Of a stretch of 64,000 bases of DNA, positions 11,943 to 43,487 are shown piece after piece. Position 1 is the stretch's first letter; each line of letters begins with the position of its first letter. A program made the translations under genes and the position numbers. The notes under the pieces are model-generated. The model was not told the DNA's origin. It saw only the letters and a program-made list of their open reading frames with translations, and ran no database searches. Source of the DNA: Phycisphaerae bacterium (GTDB taxonomy: Bacteria; Planctomycetota; Phycisphaerae; UBA1845); the NCBI GenBank assembly GCA_963666835.2, contig CAXXGO010000003.1, forward strand, positions 681,980 through 745,979. Reading direction: 5' to 3'.

Positions 11943-11964
11943 CTCCAGAATCGTACGAGGGTAA

Positions 11965-17611: not shown

Positions 17612-17624
17612 GAGATAACCTCCG

Positions 17625-18137
17625 ATGGAAACCACCGTGGAAGCTCCGGCAGCGACCCCGGCCGACAATGTCGCTGCCGACCTGAGCGGAAAGTACCTGA
17701 CCTTCCGCTTGGCCGACGAGGAATACGGACTTGAAATCCTAAGAGTCCGCGAAATCATCGGCGTGATGGATATCACCCGAGTCCCGCAGACCCGCCCGTT
17801 CGTAGAAGGGGTCATCAACCTGCGCGGTAAAGTCATCCCAGTGGTCAATCTCCGGGTCAAGTTTGGCTTGCCCCGAGCAGAGTACACCGAAGAAACTTGC
17901 ACAATTGTTGTCGATGTCGGAGAGTTGATGGGTATCATTGTGGATACCGTCGAAGAGGTCCATGACATTTCTGCGCAGGACATTGAACCGCCGCCGCGAA
18001 TGAATGGGACTGTCGAAACAGGGTTCATCCTCGGTATGGGTAAGGTCGACGATGACGTGAAGATGCTGCTGGACATCGCCGAAGTTCTGACTTCCGAGGA
18101 GTTGGTGGTAGCCGAGCCGGCCGCCGCGTTATGCTGA
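17625..18137 (+). CDS. cheW: Chemotaxis coupling protein CheW
   Basis: YLTFRL..EEYG, GVINLRGKVIPVV, GIIVD.V.EV. Confidence 0.96.
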   Translation: METTVEAPAATPADNVAADLSGKYLTFRLADEEYGLEILRVREIIGVMDITRVPQTRPFVEGVINLRGKVIPVVNLRVKFGLPRAEYTEETCTIVVDVGELMGIIVDTVEEVHDISAQDIEPPPRMNGTVETGFILGMGKVDDDVKMLLDIAEVLTSEELVVAEPAAALC

Positions 18138-18183
18138 TCCGCGTGCGTTTCGTCTTTTGAAACCCAAGCGAGCCGGGTACGTC

Positions 18184-18660
18184 ATGCAGCAGGTTGTCGA
18201 CATCGCGGACATCCAGGTTTCAAGCGATCCCCGGGTCACCCTGATCACCTACTCTCTGGGTAGCTGTATCGGCGTGACTATTTGGGATCCCCAAGTCCGG
18301 GTGGGCGGCATGATCCATTACATGCTCCCGGAAGCGTCTCTTTCGCCGGAGAAAGCGGAAGCGATCCCCGGAATGTTTGCTGACAGCGGAATCCCGCGGC
18401 TCTTTCGCGCCGCTTACGGACTCGGCGCAACGAAGAAGAACTTGATCGTCAAGGTCGCCGGCGGATCGCAGTTGTTGGATGACAAGGGCACCTTCAACAT
18501 CGGTAAACGCAATTATGTTATGCTCCGTAAGATCTTCTGGAAGAACGGGATTCTTATTGACTCCGAGGACGTCGGTGGTTCCGTGAGTCGCACGCTGACG
18601 TTGGACATCGGCACCGGCGCAGTCGTCGTGCGAATCCGGCGAGAGGAGGTGCGATTATGA
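18184..18660 (+). CDS. cheD: Chemoreceptor glutamine deamidase CheD
   Basis: TYSLGSCIGV, GGMIHYMLP, KVAGG, FNIGKRN, EDVGG..SRT. Confidence 0.95.
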   Translation: MQQVVDIADIQVSSDPRVTLITYSLGSCIGVTIWDPQVRVGGMIHYMLPEASLSPEKAEAIPGMFADSGIPRLFRAAYGLGATKKNLIVKVAGGSQLLDDKGTFNIGKRNYVMLRKIFWKNGILIDSEDVGGSVSRTLTLDIGTGAVVVRIRREEVRL

Positions 18661-19547
18661 ACAGCACAGAAACCGCTCGGGGAATCGCGGACCGAGTCAG
18701 GACTCTGCCGGCGCTTCCCGATACTGCGTTGCGGCTTATGGAGGTCATTAACAATCCACGCAGCACCGTTGACCAAATAGTCGACGTGATCAAGTACGAT
18801 CAAGCCGTGACCGGTGAAGTGCTTAGACTCTGCAACTCCGCGTTCTTCGGGTTAGCCCGTAAGGTGGAATCGCTGAACGACGCCATGAAGTGCCTGGGCA
18901 CGGTGAAAGTGCTTCAGCTTGTTATGTCGGTACACACCAACGCGATTCTCTCGCAGAAGCAGACGGGCTACGGACTCGAGCCGGGCGTCCTCTGGCGGCA
19001 TTCCGTAGCCGTCGCCCTGGGGTCGTCCATGTTTGCCGGCCACCTGAAGCTTCCAAATATCAGTCTTGCCTTCACCGCCGGACTTCTTCACGATGTGGGA
19101 AAGACGATCCTAAACGAGTATGTTGCTGAGGAGTACGGCGAGATTATCCGCCTGGTTACTGAAGAACGTCGCTCGTTCACGGAGGCGGAACATCAGGTGC
19201 TGGGATGCTCCCACGAGGAAGTCGGAGCGTTAGTAGGAGAGCGGTGGGATCTGCCGGACGCCATTGTCAAGTGTATTCGCTATCACCATGAGCCCGCGGC
19301 CTTGGATCCGCCGGATTCGCTGGTAGATGCCGTCTACCTGGCAAACAGCGTCTGCCTGCTTCTGGGCATAGGATTGGGGGAGGACGGATTATCGTATCGT
19401 GCCGACGATGCGGTTATGGAGCGTCACGGTCTCAAAGAGAGCGACCTTCAGGCTTTCGGAGCGCAGACGGTCGTCGAATTGAAGCGGGTTGAAAAGAGCT
19501 TTTCTGATGTCGGAACGGCCAATCACTGCCAGACCCCGGCAAGCTAG
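18657..19547 (+). CDS. HDOD domain protein
   Basis: LPALP, LRLCNSAFFG, LWRHS, AGLLHDVGK, HEEVG..W.LP..I.YHH. Confidence 0.92.
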   Translation: MNSTETARGIADRVRTLPALPDTALRLMEVINNPRSTVDQIVDVIKYDQAVTGEVLRLCNSAFFGLARKVESLNDAMKCLGTVKVLQLVMSVHTNAILSQKQTGYGLEPGVLWRHSVAVALGSSMFAGHLKLPNISLAFTAGLLHDVGKTILNEYVAEEYGEIIRLVTEERRSFTEAEHQVLGCSHEEVGALVGERWDLPDAIVKCIRYHHEPAALDPPDSLVDAVYLANSVCLLLGIGLGEDGLSYRADDAVMERHGLKESDLQAFGAQTVVELKRVEKSFSDVGTANHCQTPAS

Positions 19548-19561
19548 TAGGAGTTGCGACG

Positions 19562-19987
19562 ATGGCCCGGGACATTCTGCTTGTAGATGACTCGGCAACG
19601 ATCCGTTCGATGGTCAAACGGACCATCCAAATGATCGGCCTGGACGTGGGAGATATTCACGAGGCCCGCAATGGCATCGAGGCCCTGGCCTGCCTGGAGG
19701 ACTACGATATCGCAGTTCTGCTTGTCGACATCAATATGCCAACGATGAATGGGATCCAGTTACTCACGCGCATGAAAGACAACGCTCGACTCAAGGACAT
19801 CCCTATCGTTATTGCCTCCACCGAAGGCAGCGAACAGAGAATTCAACAACTTTCGGATCTCGGAGTGTCCGGCTACGTTCGCAAGCCGTTCCAGCCCGAA
19901 CAGCTACGCGACGTCCTGACGCCCATACTCGGAGTATTAGAAAATGCCGGAACAGAGAACAGCTACACTGACGACGATCTTTTCTGA
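19562..19987 (+). CDS. cheY: CheY-like response regulator
   Basis: ILLVDDS, DINMPTMNG, IASTEG, YVRKPF. Confidence 0.88.
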   Translation: MARDILLVDDSATIRSMVKRTIQMIGLDVGDIHEARNGIEALACLEDYDIAVLLVDINMPTMNGIQLLTRMKDNARLKDIPIVIASTEGSEQRIQQLSDLGVSGYVRKPFQPEQLRDVLTPILGVLENAGTENSYTDDDLF

Positions 19988-20414
19988 CGTCCTGGCCGAC
20001 CTTGCCTTCATGTTCAATGATGACAGCGACGAGGTTCAGTACTCGTCGGATGAACTATGGCTCGAGAGCTCCGTCAGCTACCGGGGGGTCGCCGCCGGGA
20101 CCTTACGCCTTCGTTGCACACGGACCTTCTCTGTGACCCTTGCCGCCAATCTTCTGGGAGTCGACCCGACCGATATTGACTCCGACGCCAAGGCGGACGA
20201 TGCGGTCAAGGAATTCATGAACATCGTCTGCGGTCAGCTCATTACCGCGTTGCACGGAACGGAGCACGTGTTCGACCTGACAATCCCCGAAATCCACGTA
20301 CTACCCGAAATGCCCGACATGGAAGACGAAGGAACGGGGGAGACCGTGGCCATCACGGTCGAGGGACAGCAACTTCAGTTGGCCTACCTGGCGGGAGACG
20401 CCCCTCGGGAGTAA
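19944..20414 (+). CDS. CheX/CheC-like phosphatase
   Basis: LAANLLG, DAVKEFMNIVCGQ (ExxN), FDLTIP. Confidence 0.8.
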   Translation: MPEQRTATLTTIFSDVLADLAFMFNDDSDEVQYSSDELWLESSVSYRGVAAGTLRLRCTRTFSVTLAANLLGVDPTDIDSDAKADDAVKEFMNIVCGQLITALHGTEHVFDLTIPEIHVLPEMPDMEDEGTGETVAITVEGQQLQLAYLAGDAPRE

Positions 20415-20437
20415 TCCGCGGGCAGAGGAGTTCGGGG

Positions 20438-21280
20438 ATGATCACCGAGGTCAGAGACCTAACCAGGCAGGATTACGAACTATTCCGCAAACTGGTCTAC
20501 GAGAAAAGCGGGATCAACCTCGGCGATCAGAAGATGCAGCTCGTTCGGGCCCGCCTCGGGAAGCGTGTGCGCCAGGACGGGTTCCCCTCTTTTCGCGCCT
20601 ACTATGAGCACGTCGCCAACGACCCTACCGGGGTGGAGCTGAGCGAGCTGCTGGATGCCATCTCCACCAACACCACTCATCTGTTTCGAGAGCCGAAGCA
20701 CTTCGAGTTTCTTCACGCTCAACTCACCCAATGGGCCTCCGACAGCAAATGGCGACATCAACATCGCACGGTGAGAATCTGGAGTGCCGCGTGCTCAAGC
20801 GGAGAAGAACCTCACTCCATCGCGATGACTGCATTCGATGCCCTCGGCAAATACCCCAATCTCGAACTCAGAATTCTGGCAACTGACATCTCGTCTCCGA
20901 TGCTCACCCGTGCCCAACGCGCCGTTTATGACATGCATCGTGTCGGAACCGTACCGCGTGAGTACCAACTCCGTTTTCTCAAGAAAGTCGTGGTGGACGG
21001 TCAACAGTGTCTGCAACTCGCTCCCGAATTGCGCCGGCTTATCAAGGTCACCCGGTTCAACTTGATGAACAAGACCTTCCCATTCCGGAATCGGTTCGAT
21101 ATAATATTTTGCCGAAACGTAATGATCTATTTTGACCGCCCCACTCAAGAGACCCTGGTTAGGAAGCTGACTGCAAACCTGCACGAGGACGGCGTTCTGC
21201 TGATCGGCCACTCCGAAAGCCTGACCAACCTCAAACATGAACTGGGCTACGTCCAACCGACGATATATCGCAAACAGTAG
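20438..21280 (+). CDS. cheR: Chemotaxis methyltransferase CheR
   Basis: STNTTHLFRE..HF, RIWSAACSSGEEP, ILATDIS, IFCRNVMIYF, GHSESL. Confidence 0.96.
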   Translation: MITEVRDLTRQDYELFRKLVYEKSGINLGDQKMQLVRARLGKRVRQDGFPSFRAYYEHVANDPTGVELSELLDAISTNTTHLFREPKHFEFLHAQLTQWASDSKWRHQHRTVRIWSAACSSGEEPHSIAMTAFDALGKYPNLELRILATDISSPMLTRAQRAVYDMHRVGTVPREYQLRFLKKVVVDGQQCLQLAPELRRLIKVTRFNLMNKTFPFRNRFDIIFCRNVMIYFDRPTQETLVRKLTANLHEDGVLLIGHSESLTNLKHELGYVQPTIYRKQ

Positions 21281-21342
21281 ACCGCAGTGCGCCAGACGAA
21301 CGCAACACGGTGATCATTCGTGTATGACTACTGAGGTTCAGA

Positions 21343-22428
21343 GTGAAGGCCCGCAATCCCATCAAGGTTCTGATTGTCGACGACTCGCTCGTGGTGCGGA
21401 AAATTCTCACCAAGGTCCTCAATAACGAAGCCGATATCGAAGTCGTCGGGGGCGCCCCAGACCCCTTCTTTGCCCGTGAGCTGATCATCTGCCATCGTCC
21501 GGACGTGATTATCCTCGACATCATCATGCCGCGGATGGACGGAATCACCTTCCTCAAAAAGTTGAAAGCCCACTATCCCGTTCCGGTCATCATCTGCAGC
21601 GGAGTGGCGCCGGCCAACAGTGCCCGAGCGTTGGAGGCTCTCGAAGCCGGGGCGATAGACGTGGTAGCCAAACCCAGTTGCGGCGGACCGGACGCCCTCC
21701 AGCAACTCGGCGAGGATCTCGCCGAGAAGATCCGGGCGGCCCACATAGCCCTGCCCGCCGCCCGCGCACCTGCTCCGCGACTGGTGACGCCACCGCGGCG
21801 GTTTCGTGACACGGGATTGGATCCGAACCACACGCTCGTTGTTATCGGCGCTTCGACCGGCGGCACCGAGGCGATAAACGAGTTACTCTCAAACGTACCC
21901 GATGACTTTCCCCCCGTCGCCATGGTTCAGCACATGCCCGCCGGGTTCACCAAGTCGTTCGCCGAACGCCTCGACCGCTTCAGCAGGCTGCAGGTCACCG
22001 AGGCGGTGGACGGTGACCATCTTATATCCGGGCGAGCGTTTCTGGCGCGCGGCGGAATTCAAATGAGCGTCACGCCCGTGGGCCAGCGTTGGCGAATCTG
22101 CTATGGTGATAGCGAGCTTGTGAACCGACACTGCCCCAGTGTTGGCGTCCTCTTCAACTCCGTCGCCCATTACGCCCGCAGCCGCGCCGTCGGCGTTCTG
22201 CTCACCGGCATGGGCGCCGACGGAGCGGACGGCCTGCTCGCCATGCGCCAAGCCGGAGCAATCACCATCGCCCAGAATCCAGAAAGTTGCGTGGTCTACG
22301 GCATGCCCAAGGCCGCAGTTGACAACGGTGCGGCACAACACCTCGCCCCGCCCGCGGCAATCCCCAACCTCATCCTGCGTGAACTCCGTAAGCGCAAAGC
22401 CGCCCGACCCTCGGCCTGCTCTTCTTGA
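21343..22428 (+). CDS. cheB: Chemotaxis methylesterase CheB
   Basis: Receiver domain plus GASTGG, VQHMP, HCPSV, LTGMGADGA, VVYGMP. Confidence 0.96.
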   Translation: MKARNPIKVLIVDDSLVVRKILTKVLNNEADIEVVGGAPDPFFARELIICHRPDVIILDIIMPRMDGITFLKKLKAHYPVPVIICSGVAPANSARALEALEAGAIDVVAKPSCGGPDALQQLGEDLAEKIRAAHIALPAARAPAPRLVTPPRRFRDTGLDPNHTLVVIGASTGGTEAINELLSNVPDDFPPVAMVQHMPAGFTKSFAERLDRFSRLQVTEAVDGDHLISGRAFLARGGIQMSVTPVGQRWRICYGDSELVNRHCPSVGVLFNSVAHYARSRAVGVLLTGMGADGADGLLAMRQAGAITIAQNPESCVVYGMPKAAVDNGAAQHLAPPAAIPNLILRELRKRKAARPSACSS

Positions 22429-22545: not shown

Positions 22546-23700
22546 CTACGACTTCTGCGCAACCGGCTGGTGCGGCAGACCAACGGCAAAAAGACCGATC
22601 CGCTTCTCGCCCACGGTATTGCTCACAAACACGAAGTAGTCTGCCTTGAACCCGGGTGGAACCAAGGCGACCAGCCGCGCCGGAAGCTCCCGCGCCACCG
22701 CCACACCGGTCGGCAAAGGCGTCCCCCCCAGATCATTGCCCGGCCCGCCGAACAACATGAGCAACCGCCCATTGCGGTCAAAGAGGTGGACATATCCGAA
22801 TGAGCAATCCGCAACGAAAACAACTCCATCCGGACCAACGTCCAGATGCTTGGGTGCACCCAAGTCGCCATAGCGATTACCCGGCCGCCCGACGGCTCTG
22901 ACGAATCCGTGATCGCGGCCTAGCACCTGGATTCGCCCGTTCAACATATCCGACACGAACAGATTCCCATCATCATCCCCGGCCAAGCCGATCGGAAAGT
23001 AGAACCGCCCCGGCTCACTCCCCACTCCGCCGATGGCCTCCAGATAGGTGCCGTCCGCCATAGAAAACGCCCCGATCTGATGGGCGGCAACGTCGGCAAC
23101 GAACAGCTTCCCCGCAACAACCGCGACGGCTACCGGCTGATATTCACCCTCTTCCGAGCGCCGGAATCGAAGCCGGGCCTGCCCCGCAGAGTCAAAAGAC
23201 ACGACTTCCGCTCGCCCGGTATCGGCTACATAGATGGTCCCGCCTTCGTCGACGGCAACCGCCACCGGCTTTGCCAACACAACGTCACCGCGCCCCCCAA
23301 TTCGGGAACCCTTACCCGCCGCCAGATCCCAATCGTGAACAACGTTGAGCCCCGTATCACAGATGTAGAGGTGCCCGTCGGCATAGGCGACACCTGCAGG
23401 CGTAGCGACATACGGACCGGCGGATCGGCCACGGAAGAGCTCCGTCCAACTACCGCGGCGCGGAGCAATGTCCGCGAGACTATTAAACGACTTCAAGTGA
23501 ACGACATGCGGAACCGCCGGCGGGGGCGGAAAATAGACGGGATCCGCCTTGGGCGCAGTAGAGGCACACCCCAACGGAAGCGCCCCCACCAGCAACAGGA
23601 CGGCCAACAGCGCGCAGCCGCATCTCGCGGTCGTAACCGCATCGCCGCAGGCCCTGATACCAAGTGCGCGGCGAATCACTTCTTGTGGCAGACCAGACAC
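22546..23700 (-). CDS. NHL-repeat beta-propeller lipoprotein (true start probably slightly downstream)
   Basis: Lipobox PLGC; six NHL-like repeats (P.GVA..LYICDT, GRFYFPIGLA, DLGAPKHLDV). Confidence 0.88.
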   Translation of the reverse strand: MSGLPQEVIRRALGIRACGDAVTTARCGCALLAVLLLVGALPLGCASTAPKADPVYFPPPPAVPHVVHLKSFNSLADIAPRRGSWTELFRGRSAGPYVATPAGVAYADGHLYICDTGLNVVHDWDLAAGKGSRIGGRGDVVLAKPVAVAVDEGGTIYVADTGRAEVVSFDSAGQARLRFRRSEEGEYQPVAVAVVAGKLFVADVAAHQIGAFSMADGTYLEAIGGVGSEPGRFYFPIGLAGDDDGNLFVSDMLNGRIQVLGRDHGFVRAVGRPGNRYGDLGAPKHLDVGPDGVVFVADCSFGYVHLFDRNGRLLMLFGGPGNDLGGTPLPTGVAVARELPARLVALVPPGFKADYFVFVSNTVGEKRIGLFAVGLPHQPVAQKS

Positions 23701-24260
23701 AGCGCGCTACGCCCGTTGCTGGTAACGAGCATGTGCTCTTCACCCGACATGTCGTGCGGATCATGACACGAACTACACTCGACCCGGTTCTCCGGAAGCG
23801 TTACGGTACCTGTGGCGACAACACTCGTAATCGGCCGGTACCCCTTATCGAACTGGGGGTACTCAACGCCGACGGGATGATCGCTGCGCTGATGGCCGCC
23901 GGCAAACACCCCCGAGTGCTGCCGATTGGCAAATCTCTCTTTGGTCTGATCACTTACGCTATCCTTGGCGATCGTCCCGTCGTGACACCGTAGGCAGACA
24001 CTGGTCCCTTCACCCGCGCGCCGCGTTCCGTTCAGCGGCGACCCAAAAACGCGGTTGAGGTCGGCCTTGGCATCCCACAGCGGAGCAGCCTCCGGCGGCT
24101 CGGAGCGCTGCGGCCCGTGGCACGCACTACACCCGTCTCCGCCCGCCCATTCGGCGTTGCTGAAATCGTGCTTAGATCCCTTGACGTCACCCCAAGCCCA
24201 TCCGCCGAGGATTGCCAGAACCAAAACAACCGCAACGCTAGTGACTCTCGTTCTTGTCAT
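23676..24260 (-). CDS. Tetraheme cytochrome c, OmcE-like
   Basis: Signal peptide; CSACH, CLRCH, CSSCH, CLVCH; motif order SKHD..PLW..CHDG..SDHPV..VEC..CHDPH..SALCLVCHKK. Confidence 0.9.
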   Translation of the reverse strand: MTRTRVTSVAVVLVLAILGGWAWGDVKGSKHDFSNAEWAGGDGCSACHGPQRSEPPEAAPLWDAKADLNRVFGSPLNGTRRAGEGTSVCLRCHDGTIAKDSVSDQTKERFANRQHSGVFAGGHQRSDHPVGVEYPQFDKGYRPITSVVATGTVTLPENRVECSSCHDPHDMSGEEHMLVTSNGRSALCLVCHKK

Positions 24261-26044
24261 CGGCTTACTCCCCGCGATCGGGATCTACTCGCTCCGGCGG
24301 CCGTCGCATTGGCGTACGGGAAATTGACGTGCGGGAATCCGTGACACGTCATCGTACACGTACCCGAGAACCGCCCGGTGTCTACATACTCCACTCGTCG
24401 CCCCGTCGAAGTATCCGCAGGGGTCACGACCGCCAAATCGAAATTGAGCAGGTGGCTGTGATTCGTGGCGTTGCCTTGCCCTCGGTACACGCCGTGAGGA
24501 TCGTGACAAACGACGCACGGGGTACGAATATCCACAATATGCCGCCGGTGCCGCGAGAAACTCTCGTCATTCAGAATACTCTGGCGATCATGGCATCCAT
24601 AGCATAGTGCATAGGAGTCGGCGCTCTCCGACGTGAAATCAGCCGTATCGAGATTACGCACAAGCAAGCCATCATTCAACGAGCCGTGGGGACCGTTTGC
24701 CCCGGAGCCTCCCGCCGAACGAGCATTGTCACTGTTGTGGCAATCCGTACACGTAATCACGCTGCCCGCATTCAACGGCGAGAGCAAACTGGGCACCTCG
24801 GAATTGCGCCGCGGACCGGCTACAGGATGGAACGACGGATTTGACGTTTGAAACTCGAATCGCACGTTTGTTTGACTTACCTGCCGGGAAGTTCCCAGCC
24901 GCGGCCGCAACGCGCTGTCCCCGTGGCACTTGAGGCAAATCTCGTAGAGATAATCGGCACGCTCCGTCTCGCGGCCGGAGATAGTCACTCCGGATACGTG
25001 CAGATTCGGTCCCTTGACCGTCTGCCCGAGAGTCCCGCGGACTACCCCCACCCGATTCGCCTGGGCCGCGTGCGGATTGTGGCAATCTACGCACTCCACG
25101 TGACGCCTCATGGTAAAAGGCGTCTCCGCAGCATCATGCACGCCCGTGCGCCAGCGCGGGTCGTGCCCCGAGCGTTTCCGGATGTCTGCCGCGATATTGA
25201 ACGAAGCTACCGCCCCGCTGTGGCAATTCAGGCAGTTATCTTCCTCGGCAGTATGCCGCAGCAACCGCTCCGCCTCGGGAGCCGAATGAATCTTATGGCA
25301 AACCATGCAGCCGTTATCGCGAACAGTGCCGTATTTCAGACGTTCCCGGGCATCCACTGCCCGCCCGGTCGTGCGTTTGCGGCTGGTGGTATGTGAGGCG
25401 CGGTACCATCCGTCAAGATCATGGCAGGTCACGCAAATCGCCGACATCTGGTCGGACACCCGCAGAAAATCGCCCAGCGCGTTGTTGTGCGGATCGTGGC
25501 ACGTGGTGCAATGCACTTCCCCGTGCGGCCCCATGGGCATATCCCGCGACACCACCTCCGGTGGACGCACCTGACGATCCGAGTTGCTCAACGCCCGATC
25601 GTAATGGAACCCGATCGGGTGATCGTCAGACAGATCGCCGGTCAGATCGGCGCTGCCGGGTGGAATCGTCCGCGCGGTCATCACCATCGGCTCCGTCACC
25701 GAAAGCGAGAGCAGACTGCCCAGGGCCATGGAACCGTCGTGGCAGCTCAGACACATCTTCGACGGCCCGGAGGGCTGATCGATCCGGGCATCCGTCGTCG
25801 AACTATCGTAGATCCGATAGTGAGTACGCGGATTCTCCCGGTTCCACAACGGAGTCTGCGGAGCGGCGTTGTGCGGCGTGTGGCAAAAGATACAAACTTC
25901 GTCTTCCCCGATCGCTCGAATCGGTCCCGGTCCGCGGACCGAGAGATCATGTTTCGAGTTGACGATCGATTCATCGCCGAACGCGACCACCGAAACGGTC
26001 GCAAGCACAACACTGCCGGCAAGCTGAACGCGTCGCATCCTCAT
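24257..26044 (-). CDS. Dodecaheme cytochrome c with an N-terminal OmcE-like module
   Basis: Signal peptide; 11 CxxCH (CIFCH, CLSCH, CTTCH, CVTCH, CMVCH, CLNCH, CVDCH, CLKCH, CTDCH, CYGCH, CVVCH) plus one CxxxCH (CTMTCH). Confidence 0.93.
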   Translation of the reverse strand: MRMRRVQLAGSVVLATVSVVAFGDESIVNSKHDLSVRGPGPIRAIGEDEVCIFCHTPHNAAPQTPLWNRENPRTHYRIYDSSTTDARIDQPSGPSKMCLSCHDGSMALGSLLSLSVTEPMVMTARTIPPGSADLTGDLSDDHPIGFHYDRALSNSDRQVRPPEVVSRDMPMGPHGEVHCTTCHDPHNNALGDFLRVSDQMSAICVTCHDLDGWYRASHTTSRKRTTGRAVDARERLKYGTVRDNGCMVCHKIHSAPEAERLLRHTAEEDNCLNCHSGAVASFNIAADIRKRSGHDPRWRTGVHDAAETPFTMRRHVECVDCHNPHAAQANRVGVVRGTLGQTVKGPNLHVSGVTISGRETERADYLYEICLKCHGDSALRPRLGTSRQVSQTNVRFEFQTSNPSFHPVAGPRRNSEVPSLLSPLNAGSVITCTDCHNSDNARSAGGSGANGPHGSLNDGLLVRNLDTADFTSESADSYALCYGCHDRQSILNDESFSRHRRHIVDIRTPCVVCHDPHGVYRGQGNATNHSHLLNFDLAVVTPADTSTGRRVEYVDTGRFSGTCTMTCHGFPHVNFPYANATAAGASRSRSRGVSR

Positions 26045-27066
26045 AGCGCGGCCCTCACATACTCGAATACCTGAATGCGGCGATTGCCCCCGTCCGCCAC
26101 CCAGATTCGGTCATCCTTGCCAACTGCGATACCGGTCGGTAGCCAGAACTCGCCCGGATCTTGGCCTTCTTCACCAAATGCCATCAACAAACGCCCCTCG
26201 CCGTCAAACACCTGAACATTCTCGAACTGCGCGTCGACCACGTAGAGGTGACCGTCACCGTCGACGGCCACACCCTTGGGCAAAGCGAAATCGCCCGCTC
26301 CGTCCCCCTTCTGCCCGATACTACGAACAAAGGAGCCGTCCGGGCCCAACAGTTGCACGCGGCAATTCCCACTGTCCGTAACCAGCAACCGACCATCGTG
26401 CCAACACACGTGCGTGGGATAGTTGAACTGTCCGGGACCCGTGCCTCGGCTCCCGAAACTATCCACCAGCTTCCCGTCCGGCGTAAACACCGCCAGGCAG
26501 TGCGTGCCCCCGCTTACGACATAAAGCAAGTCGCGCTCCGCTACGTACGCGATGCCGACCGGGCGGCGCAGAACATCGCCGCCGAATCTTCGCCGGAAAC
26601 TCCCCTGCCGATCAAACTCAATCACTTCGCCCCGTTGAGCATCCGTTACGAAAAGACGATCCTGCGCCCAAGTCACACCGAAAGGACTCCCCAACCGCTC
26701 ATCGCCGAACCCGGCAATACGCACATGCGTCCGGGCGTCGAGATCCAGCACGTGCACCGTCGCCTGCCCCCCGTCCGCAACCGCCAAGAGTGCCGGATCA
26801 CGGAAGGCAACTCCCTGCGGCCGCGAGAAAGACAGCGGAGGCCGCGGACCGCGCAAGGCCGCCCGTAGCGCCTCGCCCCCGGATCGCCCCGCCTTGAGGT
26901 CTGCGCTGCCCGACAGGGTTCCGACCAACCTTACTCGGGCAACGTCCGGCGGTGCCGGCCAAACCTTCGCCGGCACAATCGGCTCGAACAGCACCCCCTG
27001 AGGGCGAGCACACGCCCCGAGAAGCGCCGCCCCCAACAACGAAGCGAGCCCTGCTATCGCCCGCAC
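26041..27066 (-). CDS. NHL-repeat beta-propeller lipoprotein
   Basis: Probable GTG start at 27066, lipobox LGAC; GQFNYPTHV, GDFALPKGVAVD, GEFWLPTGIAV, NRRIQVF. Confidence 0.92.
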   Translation of the reverse strand: MRAIAGLASLLGAALLGACARPQGVLFEPIVPAKVWPAPPDVARVRLVGTLSGSADLKAGRSGGEALRAALRGPRPPLSFSRPQGVAFRDPALLAVADGGQATVHVLDLDARTHVRIAGFGDERLGSPFGVTWAQDRLFVTDAQRGEVIEFDRQGSFRRRFGGDVLRRPVGIAYVAERDLLYVVSGGTHCLAVFTPDGKLVDSFGSRGTGPGQFNYPTHVCWHDGRLLVTDSGNCRVQLLGPDGSFVRSIGQKGDGAGDFALPKGVAVDGDGHLYVVDAQFENVQVFDGEGRLLMAFGEEGQDPGEFWLPTGIAVGKDDRIWVADGGNRRIQVFEYVRAAL

Positions 27067-27070
27067 GTCG

Positions 27071-29131
27071 TTACCACTTGGCCAGCACATTCGGAATGTC
27101 CCTGCGCACGCGGAAATAAACGCCGAAATCCTCTTCTTCGGACTCCGGCAACCCCAAACGATCGTACTCTACGGTCAACTCGCCCGAGAAATCGCCAACG
27201 ATGTACTCCAGACCGGCGGTCACATCCCAGGAATTCGTGTCCCCGGCAACAGAATCATCCTCAAACCGGTACGCGATCCGCTCAACGGTTGACAGCGATT
27301 CCGTCAGACGCCAACGATGATCCAACTCCACATCCACCATCGTTACGTCACGACCGAAGGAATCGTCCTCGAAGCACATCCGCGAAAACCGGCTCGACAG
27401 ATCCAAGTTATGGTCCGGGCTGCGTACAACATGGAGCAAGCCGTTGACGTGTACCGCATCGTACGGATCCACCGTATCGTCAAAGATCTCGAATTCTGCC
27501 CCGAGACTGAACCGCTCCTGCTCGTAGTTAACCCCCAGCCGGTGATGATTCGTTCGATCCACCCACCGGGCAAAGCCGGTCGAACCCTCGTTCTCCTGGT
27601 TGCGATAGGACCACCGGTAGTAGGGTGTCAAGCCGAAGGTGAACCGCTGCTCGACGTTAAAATCGACGCGCATCGTGTCGATCTTCCCGTCGGCCGGGGT
27701 GCGATACTCATAGTCGATCAGCACCGTGTCTCCGTCGGCAATCTGCCCGGTACGAAGCCGCAACAGGCGCGTGACATTACCTTGCCGGCTGACCACGTAA
27801 TCCACGCCGGGGCGCAGGTAGCGCCGATTGGTGGCATCGGTGACCAGAATGGTCGCCTGTACCACATTGCGATTTCGCAGAATGATGGACAACGGATCAC
27901 GGAACGTGCCCGACTCGTCGAGCACAATCCGGCGGCCGTTGTCCCCGCTGATATCTTCGGTGTCGTACGCCAGAGCCAGATTGGCATTGAGATGGCCAAA
28001 CCGGTTCCGGCGGTTGTACTGCCAATCGACCGCCGCTCCGTACTGAACGGTCTCTACGTCGTCTTCGATGTCCTCATAAAGCCCGAAGACATCCACTGTC
28101 GTCGTGAGATTGCTGTACATCTGATGCACAAGCTGGAAGTCCGCCCGGTGGGTGTCGATGTCCAGTTCTTCGTAGCGCTCCCGGTTGTGCTGGTACGTGT
28201 ACATCGTCTGCAGGGAATCGCTGTGGTGCAGAGTCAGTTGCTGGCTCGACTCGTACAGATCGCGTGCGAAGTCGCCGCTCTCCTCCTGCCAACGGACGAA
28301 GCTGCGCAGACTGTGCTGAGACTCCGAGCCGAACTCCCAATCGTGCGTCAACTTGACGAGATCGCGCGTCGTCTCGAACGCGTCATCCAGCCCTTGATAC
28401 TCCTGCTTCGTCTCCCCGTGCTCGTACGAAAGTGAAAACTTCCGGTGCTCCGATACCAGCCAATCCGCAGCCCAATGGAACGTGCTTTCCGTGTAGTGCT
28501 CGTCGTCCCCGTCGTACCAGTTTCCGGTTCGATCCGTCTCGAGGTAATCGTAAGACAACTCCATCGGAATCTTGTCGTGGGCGAAAACCCAGTTGGTTCC
28601 GAAGCCCGTCCGTTCCTCGTCGAGCGTCGGCTGGAACCGGCGATTGATGCGGTCATCCCGGCGGAGTGCGTACAACGACCCCGACAGAATCTTGCCCTGC
28701 AGGAAGTTGACCCGCGCGTCGTAATGCACCAGATAACCGTTGTCGTCATCCGTGCGCGTGCCGTACCCGCTGATCTTCTCTTCGTAACGATCTTGCGTCA
28801 GAGCAAAGCTGAAATCACCGGCAAAAGTGATGAACCCCGGATCCAGCACCGTACCTCCCAGCTTCAAACCGACCCGCTCTTCGAAGCCGTAATCGGTGTT
28901 CTTCTGGGTGCGCTTCTGCCGGGCGCCCGTAAGGTCCCGCGAGGTTACCATCGTTCGCGTATACTCGCCTTTGAACTCAAGATAGGCATCGAGGTGATCG
29001 AGGCTAAGATAATCCTGCCGCGCGGCCGACGAGTCCTCGTCATCCGCAACCGCAGCGTTTCCGAGAGCCGCGACCCCAACGAACGCCACCCCGATACATC
29101 CAAGGCGAAAGGTGCTCACCGCGCCAACCAT
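27071..29131 (-). CDS. Large outer-membrane beta-barrel (porin) protein
   Basis: Signal peptide; 686 aa with alternating aromatic/polar strands rich in Y, D and R; no Cys motifs; near-terminal strand FGVYFRVRRD; first gene of a multiheme operon. Confidence 0.75.
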   Translation of the reverse strand: MVGAVSTFRLGCIGVAFVGVAALGNAAVADDEDSSAARQDYLSLDHLDAYLEFKGEYTRTMVTSRDLTGARQKRTQKNTDYGFEERVGLKLGGTVLDPGFITFAGDFSFALTQDRYEEKISGYGTRTDDDNGYLVHYDARVNFLQGKILSGSLYALRRDDRINRRFQPTLDEERTGFGTNWVFAHDKIPMELSYDYLETDRTGNWYDGDDEHYTESTFHWAADWLVSEHRKFSLSYEHGETKQEYQGLDDAFETTRDLVKLTHDWEFGSESQHSLRSFVRWQEESGDFARDLYESSQQLTLHHSDSLQTMYTYQHNRERYEELDIDTHRADFQLVHQMYSNLTTTVDVFGLYEDIEDDVETVQYGAAVDWQYNRRNRFGHLNANLALAYDTEDISGDNGRRIVLDESGTFRDPLSIILRNRNVVQATILVTDATNRRYLRPGVDYVVSRQGNVTRLLRLRTGQIADGDTVLIDYEYRTPADGKIDTMRVDFNVEQRFTFGLTPYYRWSYRNQENEGSTGFARWVDRTNHHRLGVNYEQERFSLGAEFEIFDDTVDPYDAVHVNGLLHVVRSPDHNLDLSSRFSRMCFEDDSFGRDVTMVDVELDHRWRLTESLSTVERIAYRFEDDSVAGDTNSWDVTAGLEYIVGDFSGELTVEYDRLGLPESEEEDFGVYFRVRRDIPNVLAKW

Positions 29132-29680
29132 GTTACACCCGCCCTCTGGTTTGTTTCGACCGTCAGGTCTCTTGCCATGTACTCAGCGTCGCTCGCCTCC
29201 CGTACGGCGAGGCCAGTCCAATAGTCACGCGACGATATTAACGATGCCGCTACGCATGGCAACCGCCGGAACCAGGTTCATTGCCGTTGCTCCAGGTCGG
29301 ACCGTTCGCGCTATCAACCCGTTATATCGATAAGACTGCAGTCCGCCGGCCAGCCAACTTGACCGCCGCTGCAGAGCGGTGTGTCCAGCCGACTGCCGGT
29401 CCGATCTGCGTAGATCGGCCTACCGCATCCGAGATTCCACGCCCCGTCATGCCGACGCAACCTATTATCTGACAAGGGCCTTCGCGACATTTCACACCCC
29501 ACGCGGATGCTGCTGGGCTGAACTTGCCGAACCCAAGCCGGGCAACCACGCCCGGCCGCGCCGAGTCTACCGCCTGCGCGAACTTGGACCGGCGGCATTG
29601 AACTTCTGCCGTTGGAGTGTATTGTACCGCGGATAGTGTGGACCTTGGAGTAAGAAGCTGCTCTCAGCAGAGGCGCGGTC

Positions 29681-30253
29681 ATGCGGAAGCTCGGATTGGC
29701 TGTATCAATCGTGTTAATCGTAAGTCTCGGCTGCTCCCAGGCGGCCCGCGACAGTTTCAAACACTGGTTCTTCGAAATCCCCGAACAATCGGAGGTAACT
29801 TCCGAGGCACCTGCCGCCGAACCGGAGAGTTCTTCGGCAAAGGCGGAGACGGCGCCCCATCAGGTCGAATCGAAGTACCTTTCGGTCCACGCCCCTTACG
29901 CGGATCGACAGTGCAATCGCTGCCATGACCCCGAGCAGCGCATGGCCGTGCGCGATGACCTTGAGGGTTGCTGCCTTTCGTGCCACCGGCAGTACTTCGA
30001 CGAGGATACTATCGAGCATTCCCCGGTCGCCGACCGAGAGTGCCTGACATGCCACGACTTGCATCGGAGCACGCAACTCAGCCTGCTCAAGGGCTCCGTC
30101 CTTGAATTGTGCGCTCCGTGCCATGACGAGCCGAGTGAGTTGAGTGAGGACGCGCACGGCGGCGAAGGCGTGGAGAACTGTGTTCGTTGTCATGATCCCC
30201 ATTTCGGGGAAGCACCGTATTTAAAGCCCGGAGTAGAGGGTTCAGAGGACTAA
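29681..30253 (+). CDS. Pentaheme cytochrome c lipoprotein
   Basis: Lipobox SLGC; CNRCH, CLSCH, CLTCH, CAPCH, CVRCH with H.P distal-ligand motifs. Confidence 0.92.
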   Translation: MRKLGLAVSIVLIVSLGCSQAARDSFKHWFFEIPEQSEVTSEAPAAEPESSSAKAETAPHQVESKYLSVHAPYADRQCNRCHDPEQRMAVRDDLEGCCLSCHRQYFDEDTIEHSPVADRECLTCHDLHRSTQLSLLKGSVLELCAPCHDEPSELSEDAHGGEGVENCVRCHDPHFGEAPYLKPGVEGSED

Positions 30254-30442
30254 CGACGCGCAAGGGATCGAGGCCGATTGGGTCGGCCTGTGGCGTACCC
30301 GTGGCGGGTCGCGCCGGAGACGGTGAGTAAGAGCAGGGCGCTTGCCGTTTCGCCGAGGACATTCTCGCGAAGGATTACGACCGCTCTTGGGCATGGCTAG
30401 ACCCCAAGCCAAGCGGTCGAGCAGAAGATCTAAGGAGTCATC

Positions 30443-30922
30443 ATGTATAAGGTAGCCAAGTGGTCGACGACGTTCATCGCGGTGATCCTGTTCCTGGGAG
30501 TATCCGGTTGCGGCACTAACGTCCAAGATATTCTGTACCAAACCGGCTCGTCCGTGGGCCGATCCTTCTACGACATGCTCTTGACCGAGATGGTTAACGA
30601 CATCGCAGACGCATTCGACACCACCGCCGATGATGCCGCGGACGACGAGGACGCCGACGATGACGGGGAAGACCCCGCGGATGACGGCGCGGATGATGAT
30701 GCCGACGACGATGGGGATGACGGGGCCGCTCCCGACGGAGCGACGCTGTACGCGGACAATTGCGCGGCATGCCACGGCGACGACGGCGCCTCCGGATTCG
30801 GACCCGATGTCACTGGGTTGTCAGCAGACGATATGGCCGCCGGCCTGGAATCCGGAACCCACGCGGGAATCAGCCTGACCGACGACGAGGTCGCGGCAAT
30901 CGCGGAGCTGATGGGCGGCTAG
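30443..30922 (+). CDS. Monoheme cytochrome c lipoprotein with Asp-rich linker
   Basis: AAGGAG RBS; lipobox VSGC; ~40-aa D/A/G-rich tract; DGATLYADNCAACHG. Confidence 0.88.
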   Translation: MYKVAKWSTTFIAVILFLGVSGCGTNVQDILYQTGSSVGRSFYDMLLTEMVNDIADAFDTTADDAADDEDADDDGEDPADDGADDDADDDGDDGAAPDGATLYADNCAACHGDDGASGFGPDVTGLSADDMAAGLESGTHAGISLTDDEVAAIAELMGG

Positions 30923-33177: not shown

Positions 33178-36100
33178 CTAGGGGCAATCCGCGGGGGCAC
33201 TAAACGGATACGGCTCGCCCTTGAAGGCGCTAACGCAACGCTGAACATCCGTCATGTTCACGATCTTGTTCGGCACCTCGGCGTCCAGGTCGACCCAGGT
33301 CAGATGCGGCGCGGTCTCCAGACCCGAGAAGGCCTGCAGGATTGCCTGGATGTCACTCATGTTAACAACGCCGTTGGGCGGCTCCCACGTCCCGTTGAAT
33401 CCGCCAACCACGTCACCCCAATACTTAACACCCGGCTTCGCGATCGTGTTCACAGTCAGCGACTCAGAGAAACCAATTCCATCGGTCGTCGAAGTGATCG
33501 CGTACTCGGCCACTGGAGTGATCATACAATCGCCCACATGCACGACCGCTGGCCAAGCGTCGCTGTAGTGCGCGGCGCGGACCACACGAGATATGTTGTT
33601 CCCATCCGGCTCGCCAACCCATCCGTACACACCCACCGAACCGGGGAAATACTCACTGCCCGCCAACTCCACCAGGAAGGCGACGTTCGTCCCGGCGTTG
33701 TTCGGATCGAAGGAGATGTAGCGGTTCTTGCCCACATCATGTGGCGGCGGTGCGTCATCAGGAGGCTCTCCGACCCCGCCGGGGGCGATTCTCAACGTCA
33801 CGCCACCGAAGTTGTCTCCGCACGCGAGATCGCTAATCCAGAAGTAAACCGTATCTGCCGCCGGGAGAGTGATAGTCATCGACATCCCCAGGCTGGCGGC
33901 CAATGCTTCTTGTGCCGTAGGATACTCCAGCCCCGTCGGGTTCCATGCGATGTCCAAGACGCCGGGAACGGTTATATTCACCTCCCACCGCCAGTCGAAC
34001 TCGCTTCCGCGTTTGTAGGCATCGAAGTGGTCGTCTGGATTATCCACAACAGTAAGCGTATACGTCCCGGCTTCCAGCCAGACAGGTTCTCCCGAGGTGG
34101 CACTCGTCCCGCAGTCCTCCATGCTGTCGACTTCTACGAGAACACCCGCGCCTCCCGAGCCAAACATGTACACCGACCCGGAATCAGCGCCGTCATCATC
34201 GTTCTCGGCGGCCCCAACAACGACAGTCTCTCCAGAAACGGCCACACAACGCCCAAAACCGTCGCCTGCAGCAGCGTCGGAAGCCGTCAAGTTCTGCTCT
34301 TCCACCCAGGCGGAGCCATTGTAGTGGAAAACATAGGCCGAGCCGGAGTTGACACCGTCGTCATCGTTGCCACTAGCCCCGATTATCGCGGTACCCCCGG
34401 ACAGATCCACCGGCGAGCCGAAGCCATCGCCGTCCGCGGCGTCCGAAGCCAGTAACTTCTGAACCTGTATCCAAGTCGATCCGTTGAATTCGAACACGTA
34501 CACCGCGCCTGCATTGTTGCCCGCACCGTCATGGCCATGTGCCCCAGCCATGGCGATGTCACCGGAGATAGCCACCGCATCGTAAACGCCGAGTTCGTCC
34601 TCCGCCGCACCGTCAGAGGCCATCAACTTCGCTTCCTCGACCCAGCTGGAACCGTTGTAGCGAAACACATACGCGGCACCCGTATTGTTACCGACACCGT
34701 CACCCCAATCTCCCCATGCACCAACAATCGCCGTCTCACCGGAGATGTCCACCGACAGGCCGAACTCGTCCCAGGCTTCGCCGTCGGACGCCGTCAGTTT
34801 CTGTTCTTCAACCCATGTCGAACCGTTATAGCGGAAGATGTACGCTGCCCCCGTTCGACTTCCGTTGTCGGCGTCGTACGGAGCACCAACAATGATGGTG
34901 TCTCCGCTTGTCGCTACAGCCAAGCCGAACTGATCTGAAGTGGCGCCATCAGAAGCCAGTAGTTCCTGTTCCTCCATCCAGGTCAAACCGTTGAAACGGA
35001 ACACGTAAGCCGATCCGGCATCGCTCCCGTACCCTCGGCCAATCACCGCAACATCACCACAGATACCCGACGAGAAACCGAACTCGTTCCCAGCTACGCC
35101 GTTCGAAGCCGTCAGCTTCTGCTCCTCGATCCAGGTTGGCCCGCTGCTGCGGAACATGTACACCGACCCGGAATCAGCGCCGTCATCATCGTTCTCGGCG
35201 GCCCCAACAACGACAGTCTCTCCAGAAACGGCCACACAACGCCCAAAACCGTCGCCTGCAGCAGCGTCGGAAGCCGTCAAGTTCTGCTCTTCCACCCAGG
35301 CGGAGCCATTGTAGTGGAAAACATAGGCCGAGCCGGAGTTGACACCGTCGTCATCGTTGCCACTAGCCCCGATTATCGCGGTACCCCCGGACAGATCCAC
35401 CGGCGAGCCGAAGCCATCGCCGTCCGCGGCGTCCGAAGCCAGTAACTTCTGAACCTGTATCCAAGTCGATCCGTTGAATTCGAACACGTACACCGCGCCT
35501 GCATTGTTGCCCGCACCGTCATGGCCATGTGCCCCAGCCATGGCGATGTCACCGGAGATAGCCACCGCATCGTAAACGCCGAGTTCGTCCTCCGCCGCAC
35601 CGTCAGAGGCCATCAACTTCGCTTCCTCGACCCAGCTGGAACCGTTGTAGCGAAACACATACGCGGCACCCGTATTGTTACCGACACCGTCACCCCAATC
35701 TCCCCATGCACCAACAATCGCCGTCTCACCGGAGATGTCCACCGACAGGCCGAACTCGTCCCAGGCTTCGCCGTCGGACGCCGTCAGTTTCTGTTCTTCA
35801 ACCCATGTCGAACCGTTATAGCGGAAGATGTACGCTGCCCCCGTTCGACTTCCGTTGTCGGCGTCGTACGGAGCACCAACAATGATGGTGTCTCCGCTTG
35901 TCGCTACAGCCAAGCCGAACTGATCTGAAGTGGCGCCATCAGAAGCCAGTAGTTCCTGTTCCTCCATCCAGGTCAAACCGTTGAAACGGAACACGTAAGC
36001 CGATCCGGCATCGCTCCCGTACCCTCGGCCAATCACCGCAACATCACCACAGATACCCGACGAGAAACCGAACTCGTTCCCAGCTACGCCGTTCGAAGCC

Positions 36101-36696
36101 GTCAGCTTCTGCTCCTCGATCCAGTCCGATCCGCCATAACGGAGAATATACGCCGCTCCGGCGTCACTGCCGTTGTCATCGTCGCCCGTAGCACCGACCA
36201 CGGCCGCATTGCCGGATATTTCCACGGATTGCCCATAACGGTCCCCCGCAGCAGCGTCCGAGGCGGTCAGCTTCTGCTCCTCGCTCCAGTCCGATCCGCC
36301 ATAACGGAGAATATAGGCCGCCCCGGCGTCACTGCCGTTGTCATCGTCGCCCGTAGCGCCGAGCACGGCCGCATTGCCGGATATTTCCACGGATTGCCCA
36401 TAACGGTCCTCCGCAGCAGCGTCCGAGGCGGTCAGCTTCTGCTCCTCGCTCCAGTCCGATCCGCCATAACGGAGGACGTACGCCGCCCCGGAATCACTGC
36501 CGTTGTCATCGTCGCCCGTGGCGCCAACTACGGATGCATTGCCGGAGATTCCCACAGACTGCCCGTACCGGTCCCCCGCAGCAGCATCGGGGGCGGTAAA
36601 CTTGGCTTGTTCGCCCCACTGGGCCAAACTCACCCCCGATACCGCGCTCAAAATCAACATGACCGCTAGCATTGACCTGCCTATCTGACCTGACAT
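33178..36696 (-). CDS. Secreted FG-GAP repeat protein with C-terminal dockerin/EF-hand-like domain
   Basis: Signal peptide; 15 repeats of KL.ASD...D.FG.SV.ISG...VGA...G.AYVF; C-terminal WGDVVG..PNGVVNMSDI / PNKIVNMTDV. Confidence 0.92.
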   Translation of the reverse strand: MSGQIGRSMLAVMLILSAVSGVSLAQWGEQAKFTAPDAAAGDRYGQSVGISGNASVVGATGDDDNGSDSGAAYVLRYGGSDWSEEQKLTASDAAAEDRYGQSVEISGNAAVLGATGDDDNGSDAGAAYILRYGGSDWSEEQKLTASDAAAGDRYGQSVEISGNAAVVGATGDDDNGSDAGAAYILRYGGSDWIEEQKLTASNGVAGNEFGFSSGICGDVAVIGRGYGSDAGSAYVFRFNGLTWMEEQELLASDGATSDQFGLAVATSGDTIIVGAPYDADNGSRTGAAYIFRYNGSTWVEEQKLTASDGEAWDEFGLSVDISGETAIVGAWGDWGDGVGNNTGAAYVFRYNGSSWVEEAKLMASDGAAEDELGVYDAVAISGDIAMAGAHGHDGAGNNAGAVYVFEFNGSTWIQVQKLLASDAADGDGFGSPVDLSGGTAIIGASGNDDDGVNSGSAYVFHYNGSAWVEEQNLTASDAAAGDGFGRCVAVSGETVVVGAAENDDDGADSGSVYMFRSSGPTWIEEQKLTASNGVAGNEFGFSSGICGDVAVIGRGYGSDAGSAYVFRFNGLTWMEEQELLASDGATSDQFGLAVATSGDTIIVGAPYDADNGSRTGAAYIFRYNGSTWVEEQKLTASDGEAWDEFGLSVDISGETAIVGAWGDWGDGVGNNTGAAYVFRYNGSSWVEEAKLMASDGAAEDELGVYDAVAISGDIAMAGAHGHDGAGNNAGAVYVFEFNGSTWIQVQKLLASDAADGDGFGSPVDLSGGTAIIGASGNDDDGVNSGSAYVFHYNGSAWVEEQNLTASDAAAGDGFGRCVAVSGETVVVGAAENDDDGADSGSVYMFGSGGAGVLVEVDSMEDCGTSATSGEPVWLEAGTYTLTVVDNPDDHFDAYKRGSEFDWRWEVNITVPGVLDIAWNPTGLEYPTAQEALAASLGMSMTITLPAADTVYFWISDLACGDNFGGVTLRIAPGGVGEPPDDAPPPHDVGKNRYISFDPNNAGTNVAFLVELAGSEYFPGSVGVYGWVGEPDGNNISRVVRAAHYSDAWPAVVHVGDCMITPVAEYAITSTTDGIGFSESLTVNTIAKPGVKYWGDVVGGFNGTWEPPNGVVNMSDIQAILQAFSGLETAPHLTWVDLDAEVPNKIVNMTDVQRCVSAFKGEPYPFSAPADCP
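34163..36124. repeat. Exact 972-bp direct repeat with 990-bp period (34163-35134 and 35153-36124)
   Basis: Sequence lines match at an offset of 990; the 330-aa block appears twice in the protein, and ORF-track peptides recur at +990. Confidence 0.93.
36125..36600. repeat. Three near-identical 168-bp tandem units (one FG-GAP blade each)
   Basis: TCCGATCCGCCATAACGGAG recurs with a period of 168. Confidence 0.85.
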
Positions 36697-43471: not shown

Positions 43472-43487
43472 ATGGAAAGGACCCACG

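Follow-up and report, generated by a model that had tools for sequence, protein, structure and literature searches.

An OmcE-family cytochrome cluster with a predicted 28-strand barrel in a Phycisphaerae bacterium, a likely outer-membrane electron conduit with candidate anchor and cap subunits

We analyzed a 64,000-nucleotide stretch of DNA (the window) from a Phycisphaerae bacterium (assembly GCA_963666835.2, contig CAXXGO010000003.1, positions 681,980 to 745,979 of the forward strand). Between positions 22546 and 30922 it carries genes for a large beta-barrel, two NHL beta-propeller proteins, and four c-type cytochromes, and the likely function of this cluster is that of an outer-membrane electron conduit. 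We somewhat favor a porin-cytochrome conduit of fixed length made of OmcE modules, with a dodecaheme cytochrome as anchor and a tetraheme cytochrome as cap, rather than a long filament. The features of the cluster are as follows.

27071..29131, minus strand: outer-membrane beta-barrel, 686 amino acids (aa), predicted to have 28 strands, unplugged, with one beta-sandwich insert after strand 17 (AlphaFold2 model, structural match to MtrB)
26041..27090, minus strand: NHL1, an NHL beta-propeller lipoprotein with lipobox LGAC and Cys27 (PF01436, E = 5e-24)
24257..26044, minus strand: dodecaheme c cytochrome that begins with an OmcE domain, followed by 8 more hemes; proposed as the anchor (matches to solved OmcE in text)
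25871..25873, minus strand: dodecaheme His58 (in CIFCHTPH), likely donor ligand to a partner heme (conservation; equivalent of OmcS His16 by analogy)
23676..24260, minus strand: tetraheme c cytochrome of the OmcE family, from a clade seen only in Planctomycetota; proposed as the cap (matches in text)
24108..24110, minus strand: tetraheme Gln51 (codon CAG), where OmcE has the putative linking histidine
22546..23700, minus strand: NHL2, an NHL beta-propeller protein, probably a lipoprotein (Cys45; translation may begin further downstream; PF01436, E = 2.4e-18)
29681..30253, plus strand: pentaheme c cytochrome, probable lipoprotein of the doubled-CxxCH type, divergent (PF09699, E = 2e-19)
30443..30922, plus strand: accessory monoheme lipoprotein, a class I cytochrome c carried on an acidic linker (PF13442/PF00034; 39 D+E against 1 K+R)

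Two OmcE-family cytochromes and a modeled barrel

We found that the tetraheme aligns along its full length with the OmcE filament proteins of known structure (9YUQ, E = 4.3e-14; 7TFS, E = 5.8e-5), with a profile E-value of 3.6e-27. The first 210 residues of the dodecaheme match OmcE better than the tetraheme does (7TFS, E = 9.5e-30; 9YUQ, E = 5.1e-26). With this homology and four CxxCH motifs in register, both proteins belong to the OmcE family (domain), as a preliminary description of this DNA had proposed. That description had also read an ordered OmcE motif signature in both. The ordered motifs are present in the tetraheme and in the N-terminal 210 residues of the dodecaheme, but the tetraheme has a glutamine in place of the second histidine of OmcE's CxxCHxxH. 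This residue, Gln51, three residues after the heme 1 histidine, had been overlooked. Contigs from three public runs (at most two samples, one of them possibly the source) span the gene with 0 differences, and on this basis we rejected a sequencing error at Gln51. The tetraheme keeps the other three distal histidines of an OmcE subunit, whereas the N-terminal domain of the dodecaheme has all four. We found no other OmcE paralogue in the genome, which is 92% complete. In a quick tree of 105 rows, tetrahemes of the window type form their own clade apart from canonical OmcE (Shimodaira-Hasegawa-like approximate likelihood ratio test support, 99).

The dodecaheme has 28 invariant histidines for 12 hemes in 76 relatives, four beyond the needs of bis-histidine ligation. 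No catalytic multiheme family passes its cut-off among the cluster proteins, and the score to the MtrA/DmsE decaheme family TIGR03508 was 53.2 bits against a cut-off of 192.2.

The 686-aa protein had been called a beta-barrel, and its AlphaFold2 model, built with 63 relatives, bears this out: the mean predicted local distance difference test score (pLDDT) is 90.1 and nearly all of the model is beta. We counted 28 barrel strands from its DSSP list. Only 12 residues precede strand 1 and there is no plug, so something must fill the barrel. If strand 1 starts in the periplasm, the beta-sandwich insert would lie outside. The best structural match among 48,161 chains was MtrB (6r2q_B; Z = 18.9, root mean square deviation 9.4, 443 residues aligned; next rows, 16.1), which also has the highest query TM-score (0.44) among the Foldseek matches listed. 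Non-redox barrels score Z = 14 to 16 against the same model; because large barrels resemble each other, the MtrB match speaks to fold and not to function. As predicted, then, the protein is an unplugged barrel of at least 20 strands encoded with a long multiheme cytochrome, as a conduit barrel should be. A complex prediction of barrel residues 10 to 650 with the dodecaheme OmcE domain and 4 hemes scored 0.00 against a mark of 0.32 and speaks neither for nor against this. A crude test of alternating hydrophobicity, passed by 13 of the 28 strands, was not used.

The barrel family is large and unnamed, with 1,398 representatives at E <= 1e-30. The window barrel has no Pfam match of its own and no solved relative by sequence, and its Atlas neighbors are unnamed clusters; PF13505 is matched by 7 of the 63 relatives. 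A weak NCBIfam match to a tail-tube protein (E = 0.0011) covers only the beta-sandwich insert, and we rejected that identity.

MtrCAB of Shewanella (PDB 6R2Q) shares with the window a large unplugged barrel, an adjacent gene for a long multiheme cytochrome, and lipoprotein cytochromes as likely outer partners. The two differ in that the window cytochromes are OmcE type and two NHL propellers are present on the window side. MtrB has 26 strands (PMC12133095), in contrast to the 28 predicted here plus the insert, and identity is about 10%.

Seven open reading frames (ORFs) make up the cluster, five on the minus strand and two divergent from them on the plus strand. Along the minus strand, from barrel through NHL1, dodecaheme, and tetraheme to NHL2, neighbors overlap by 20, 4, 4, and 25 bp. 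There are 22 heme motifs, of which the dodecaheme has 11 CxxCH and 1 CxxxCH, the tetraheme 4, the pentaheme 5, and the monoheme 1. When the four cytochromes were shuffled 2000 times, the mean was 0.12 CxxCH and the maximum 3, compared with 21 observed. Layout, overlaps, and heme count agree with the preliminary description, and both NHL proteins pass Pfam PF01436. By heme counts, the cluster may also resemble ExtABCD of Geobacter sulfurreducens, which likewise has a barrel, a 12-heme cytochrome, and a 5-heme lipoprotein. Lipoprotein signals are canonical in NHL1 and the monoheme. NHL2 (PLGC) and the pentaheme (SLGC) depart from the consensus at -3, although the lipobox is canonical in 18 of 24 relatives of the pentaheme. 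We found neither a sigma-54 nor an FNR site in the 549 bp between the divergent genes, and a sigma-54-like match lies upstream of 1 of 28 related barrels.

Relatives of the cluster and the linking-histidine pattern

From 560 related loci we compared the best 80; every one was chosen by its dodecaheme, and contig ends truncate many of them. Most are titled Phycisphaerae or Planctomycetota, and the more distant ones include Pirellulales, Sedimentisphaerales, two Gammaproteobacteria, and one Desulfobacteraceae. The dodecahemes of loci L028, L033, L045, L047, and L053 are 67 to 71% identical to that of the window, and the metagenome-assembled genomes (MAGs) that carry them were placed in the Phycisphaerae family UBA1845 (PMC10732223). 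The roughly 40 closest records are titled Phycisphaerae, Planctomycetota, or unclassified bacterium, and the G+C content of the 746-kb contig matches that of the genome. These data support the planctomycete host that had been proposed, probably a member of the UBA1845 group, and we rejected a Desulfobacterota origin.

Across the 80 loci we found matches to NHL1 in 77, the barrel in 69, NHL2 in 60 (as best match), the pentaheme in 48, and the monoheme in 17. Barrel, NHL1, and dodecaheme form a fixed core, around which gene order varies. NHL1 precedes the dodecaheme in the cassettes examined, and NHL2 follows the tetraheme. Of the relatives, 33 of 40 carry the dodecaheme. The tetraheme occurs in 155 of the 201 genomes counted for the order, and 10 of 301 genomes sampled from across the phylum encode the barrel (this genome is included in the last two counts). 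Mean identity over 19 loci (15 for the monoheme) was 72% for the dodecaheme, 60% for the barrel, 58% for NHL1, 56% for the tetraheme, 52% for NHL2, 47% for the pentaheme, and 37% for the monoheme.

Two variants stood out. A second cassette type (L066-L094; titles Pirellulales, Sedimentisphaerales, and others) has the order tetraheme, NHL2, pentaheme, barrel, NHL1, dodecaheme. Loci L164-L198, which come from two families of the order, carry a divergently split cassette in which NHL2 and the histidine-poor octaheme discussed below are often a single fused protein.

The cassette system is not confined to planctomycetes. In the phylum to which the Desulfobacteraceae record belongs, the dodecaheme profile matches 30 of 251 genomes. 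Among 18 Desulfobacterota regions that we fetched, six (L121-L126) have the same barrel, NHL1, and fused dodecaheme, and three (L117, L119, L120) are canonical omcE clusters. In seven, the dodecaheme is split into a tetraheme and an octaheme; a small tetraheme adjoins in six of these, and five lie beside pilB/pilC-like genes (named by eye). Proteins of L115, L117, L119, and L128 are named Geobacter cytochromes by their sources (P0121, P0127, P0129, P0134).

In the Geobacter split cluster (L112-L116, L128), NHL, tetraheme, octaheme, and small tetraheme genes follow one another, and the tetraheme and octaheme correspond to the halves of the window dodecaheme. The octaheme is 32 to 38% identical to the dodecaheme C-terminal half, and the N-terminal halves group with dodecahemes in the tree. 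In contrast to the window, the genes are split, there is no barrel match within the 20-kb loci, and the neighbors are secretion-system genes (by eye). We take this cluster to be GSU1788-1785 in G. sulfurreducens. GSU1786 is listed as a periplasmic cytochrome (PMC11492766); a functional characterization of the cluster was not found in the literature covered.

Such clusters, in which orthologues of NHL1 and the dodecaheme halves lie beside pilus or type II secretion-like genes without a barrel match, lend something to another explanation, that the cytochromes are a periplasmic or surface redox enzyme or an electron store with open heme sites, that no electrons cross the membrane, and that the barrel moves something else. 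The CxxxCH heme and four surplus invariant histidines of the dodecaheme would suit it, as would the likeness of large barrels to one another, non-redox ones included. We consider it improbable, the least favored of the readings weighed here, given that barrel, NHL1, and dodecaheme are tightly coupled across several phyla, that no catalytic multiheme family was matched, and that the closest solved relatives are conductive filaments.

OmcE homologues conserve four CxxCH motifs and four more histidines, and one heme takes its histidine from the next subunit (PMC13712944). OmcS polymerizes through His16, which binds heme V of the next monomer (PMC13319180), and in the 6EF8 sequence His16 is the histidine three residues after the proximal histidine of heme 1 (the +3 histidine). 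The hemes and ligands of OmcE superpose on the first four of OmcS (10.1101/2022.07.17.500359). By this analogy, the +3 histidine is the likely inter-subunit ligand of OmcE.

We found the +3 histidine in 77 of 77 dodecahemes (His58; 76 of 76 aligned rows), in 21 of 21 tetrahemes of the second cassette type, and in 19 of 19 listed Desulfobacterota tetrahemes. In contrast, only 24 of 42 window-type tetrahemes have it, and the other 18 show nine different residues. The loss was repeated: the dodecaheme tree requires 6 changes, at least 3 of them forced by starred branches. In 90 further loci from the order, the tetraheme histidine was kept in 20/20, 14/20, 12/12, 7/8, and 14/30 by group; these comprise the 30 top-scoring loci (including the window's own and some genomes already counted) and 60 hand-picked of 155 matching genomes. 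Forty-seven dodecaheme rows in these loci read histidine and seven read S or Q, which we take to be ORFs truncated at the ends of loci, so that their first motif is lost. The +3 histidine is absent from the small Geobacter tetraheme in all six split clusters where it adjoins. Judged by its sequence, the second-type tetraheme, with the histidine in every case, is the better nanowire candidate.

The histidine varies with the partner cytochrome. Among 95 distinct tetrahemes, it is present in 45 of 46 whose cassette has a downstream octaheme, in 12 of 25 where the partner is only a pentaheme, in 0 of 1 where both occur, and in 15 of 23 with neither seen. A 62-row tree, built from the window and 61 loci whose dodecaheme is complete and whose partner is classified, places all 6 histidine changes inside two pentaheme clades. 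For this tree L045, whose 8-heme neighbor is a different protein, was moved to the pentaheme class. The tree omits the rows with neither partner seen and octaheme-type rows with no dodecaheme in view, among them L192, the sole octaheme-type tetraheme without the histidine. A Fisher test of partner against histidine gave p = 1e-6, which we discarded as support because kin are not independent. The downstream octaheme has 14 conserved histidines for its 8 hemes and lacks the +3 histidine at heme 1 in 46 of 46 cases, as would an acceptor-only end piece.

The omcE clusters of G. sulfurreducens and Desulfuromonas soudanensis (7TFS, 9YUQ; PMC13712944) share with the window an OmcE-family tetraheme, two beta-propeller lipoproteins, a large barrel, two more multiheme cytochromes, and cytochrome c maturation genes nearby; the likeness to the omcE locus that had been suggested holds for gene content, which matches the minimal omcE cluster. 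They differ in that the window tetraheme lacks one of four distal histidines, a second OmcE domain is fused into the dodecaheme, and the partners have 12 and 5 hemes instead of 8 and 9/10. The barrel families are not detectably homologous: hhalign against the Geobacter omcE-cluster barrel gave a probability of 0.9%, a comparison of low power with a template of just 3 sequences, and the barrel profile had no match in the three canonical omcE loci, again at low power.

This likeness in gene content is the first point in favor of an OmcE-type cytochrome filament as the product of the cluster. The invariance of dodecaheme His58 is another, and OmcZ polymerizes without inter-subunit ligation. The tetraheme also retains its other three distal histidines, and its histidine-keeping relatives could polymerize. 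We nevertheless think a filament unlikely here. Gln51 and the repeated loss to nine other residues, the separation of the tetraheme clade from canonical OmcE, and the barrel's lack of a detectable relationship to the omcE-cluster barrel (with its weak 3-sequence template) argue against it, and the dodecaheme, with four surplus invariant histidines and the most conserved gene, fits a buried part. The preliminary description had proposed a nanowire or electron-export module. An outer-membrane conduit is likely, but the polymeric nanowire is weakened, because the tetraheme lacks the likely linking histidine and no other OmcE paralogue was found in the 92% complete genome.

A proposed capped conduit and the direction of electron flow

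From the genes, the OmcE-family sequences, the modeled fold, the histidine pattern, and the conserved gene order, we infer the following assembly, heme ligation, and electron direction. The dodecaheme, which may consist of three OmcE-like blocks fused head to tail, would sit in or under the open 28-strand barrel, and the barrel would hold the heme chain across the membrane. The four surplus histidines may close the dodecaheme's own C-terminal end, as an anchor would. His58 would ligate the free heme 3 of one tetraheme, and a tetraheme with glutamine in place of histidine would terminate the chain, capping a wire of about 16 hemes. Where an octaheme is present, the tetraheme would donate onward to it; where it is absent, the tetraheme histidine would go unused and drift. 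Each NHL propeller lipoprotein may hold or chaperone the OmcE domain of the adjacent gene. The tetraheme, pentaheme, and monoheme would face outwards, because they diverge fastest; outer-surface cytochromes have been reported to evolve fastest (10.1101/2025.11.06.686851), and the identity gradient fits a buried dodecaheme with exposed small cytochromes. Electrons would pass from the quinone pool, through complexes of HmcBC-like NrfD proteins and 13-heme cytochromes, to solid or cellular acceptors.

Several observations weigh against this capped conduit. The linking histidine of OmcE is assigned by analogy with OmcS and not from an OmcE structure. OmcZ filaments form without an inter-subunit ligand (10.1101/2022.07.17.500359), so loss of the histidine does not forbid a filament. 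The link between partner and histidine reduces to two phylogenetically independent pairs, for which a sign test is not significant, and the histidine is retained in the 12 of 25 pentaheme-type cassettes and in all 21 second-type tetrahemes, which mostly come from pentaheme cassettes. In the split dodecahemes, the octaheme half lacks the +3 histidine at its first heme in 7 of 7, so a simple linking rule fails to carry over there. The dodecaheme model is poor (pLDDT 48.8, with no heme geometry), and its top Foldseek match, 7tfs, has E = 2.1e-3 and TMt 0.42. Finally, PF00115 (heme-copper) enzymes are common in the order (162 of 201 genomes), so outward flow does not follow for the order as a whole.

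The same fixed conduit could run inward, taking up electrons from Fe(II), Mn(II), conductive minerals, or partner cells and delivering them to reductases of nitrate, nitric oxide, or oxygen. The frequency of PF00115 in the order would fit this, and MtrB-like conduits are reversible. Genes for manganese and iron oxidases have been reported as prevalent among Phycisphaerae MAGs (PMC10732223). Against inward flow, the characterized OmcE serves the reduction of insoluble acceptors (PMC12307469). We rate inward flow slightly below the filament in probability. In this genome (92% complete) we found no PF00115 oxidase, and NiFe hydrogenases and HmcBC-like complexes are present. Because no heme-copper oxidase was found and NiFe hydrogenases are present, respiratory electron export is likelier than uptake here. 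The host is likely an anaerobe.

The anchoring, start, and end of OmcE wires have been stated to be open; an ideal anchor has been described, and no tip candidate in OmcE operons (PMC13712944). With an OmcE domain fused into a histidine-rich dodecaheme and natural tetrahemes with and without the likely linking histidine, the cassette offers candidate anchor and tip subunits, and it cautions that an OmcE-like gene alone is no evidence of a nanowire. As a broader and more doubtful proposal, which we hold only tentatively, OmcE-type histidine-heme links may be a general assembly code for hetero-oligomeric wires, with a self-closed dodecaheme anchor in a new family of 28-strand barrels, tetraheme links, and a histidine-poor cap. 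If that were true, wire length could be predicted by counting the linking histidines of a cluster, one uncultured Phycisphaerae order would be electroactive in most of its genomes, lineages like this one would have shortened the wire to a 16-heme stub, and the anchor and tip subunits so far unfound in OmcE operons would be supplied. The tetraheme occurs in about three quarters of the sampled genomes of this widespread order, which gives the question ecological reach.

That no such system had been characterized in this lineage, as the preliminary description supposed, stands in part. The paper on the omcE cluster lists five phyla, Planctomycetota not among them, with 0 occurrences in its main text (PMC13712944), and in the available text of a class-wide genomic survey of Phycisphaerae the cassette is not described and word starts "porin" and "heme" have 0 matches (PMC11266412). 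We found no description of the cassette in Planctomycetota or of a histidine-lacking cap in the literature covered; the primary OmcE and OmcS papers and an mBio supplement lie outside it and may list homologues or name the linking histidine. However, putative cytochrome clusters for extracellular electron transfer (EET) have been noted generically in Phycisphaerae as uncharacterized, and anammox planctomycetes perform EET (10.1101/2022.03.26.485925). Iron-reduction potential was reported in four Planctomycetota MAGs (PMC10732223), and OmcE-like porin-cytochrome clusters have been described in Acidobacteriota and Verrucomicrobiota (10.64898/2026.05.27.727921). The cassette resembles described omcE clusters, and the anchor-and-cap pattern is the part worth testing.

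Genome and neighboring genes

In addition to NiFe hydrogenases, the genome encodes a cytochrome b and 17 ORFs with at least three CxxCH motifs. Two operons (L129:5302-8770 and L130:6711-10150) each encode an HmcB-like Fe-S protein, an NrfD-type protein, and a 13-heme cytochrome; they score below the NCBIfam cut-offs and are likely links to the quinone pool. Two near-identical 16-heme proteins (G000 C1:1836321-1841294 and C3:529526-533956) and an 8-heme relative (C1:127883-130222) have a small acidic repeat domain at the N terminus and are candidate extracellular cytochromes outside any family checked. A further tetraheme (G000 C3:343405-344118) has, by eye, a C-terminal sorting-type tail and a membrane helix and is possibly surface anchored.

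Within the window, a two-gene cytochrome c maturation unit lies at 10101-13764 on the plus strand. Its 599-aa CcsB-like protein is the only PF01578 match in the genome, about 9 kb from the cluster, and the 613-aa membrane protein encoded ahead of it is ResB-like by eye with no NCBIfam match. A chemotaxis operon (14903-22428, plus strand; CheA, W, D, HDOD, Y, R, and B named by eye) ends about 120 bp from the cluster; a CheB query did not recover this arrangement in any of the 80 related loci. At 42575-46748, ORFs that look like a DNA methylase and an integrase by eye lie in a stretch of lower G+C content, possibly a mobile element. Within the gene for a 1172-aa secreted repeat protein (33178-36696, minus strand), about 990 bp are duplicated, apparently exactly, as shown by identical ORFs at 34531 and 35521; the duplication is either recent or an assembly artifact.

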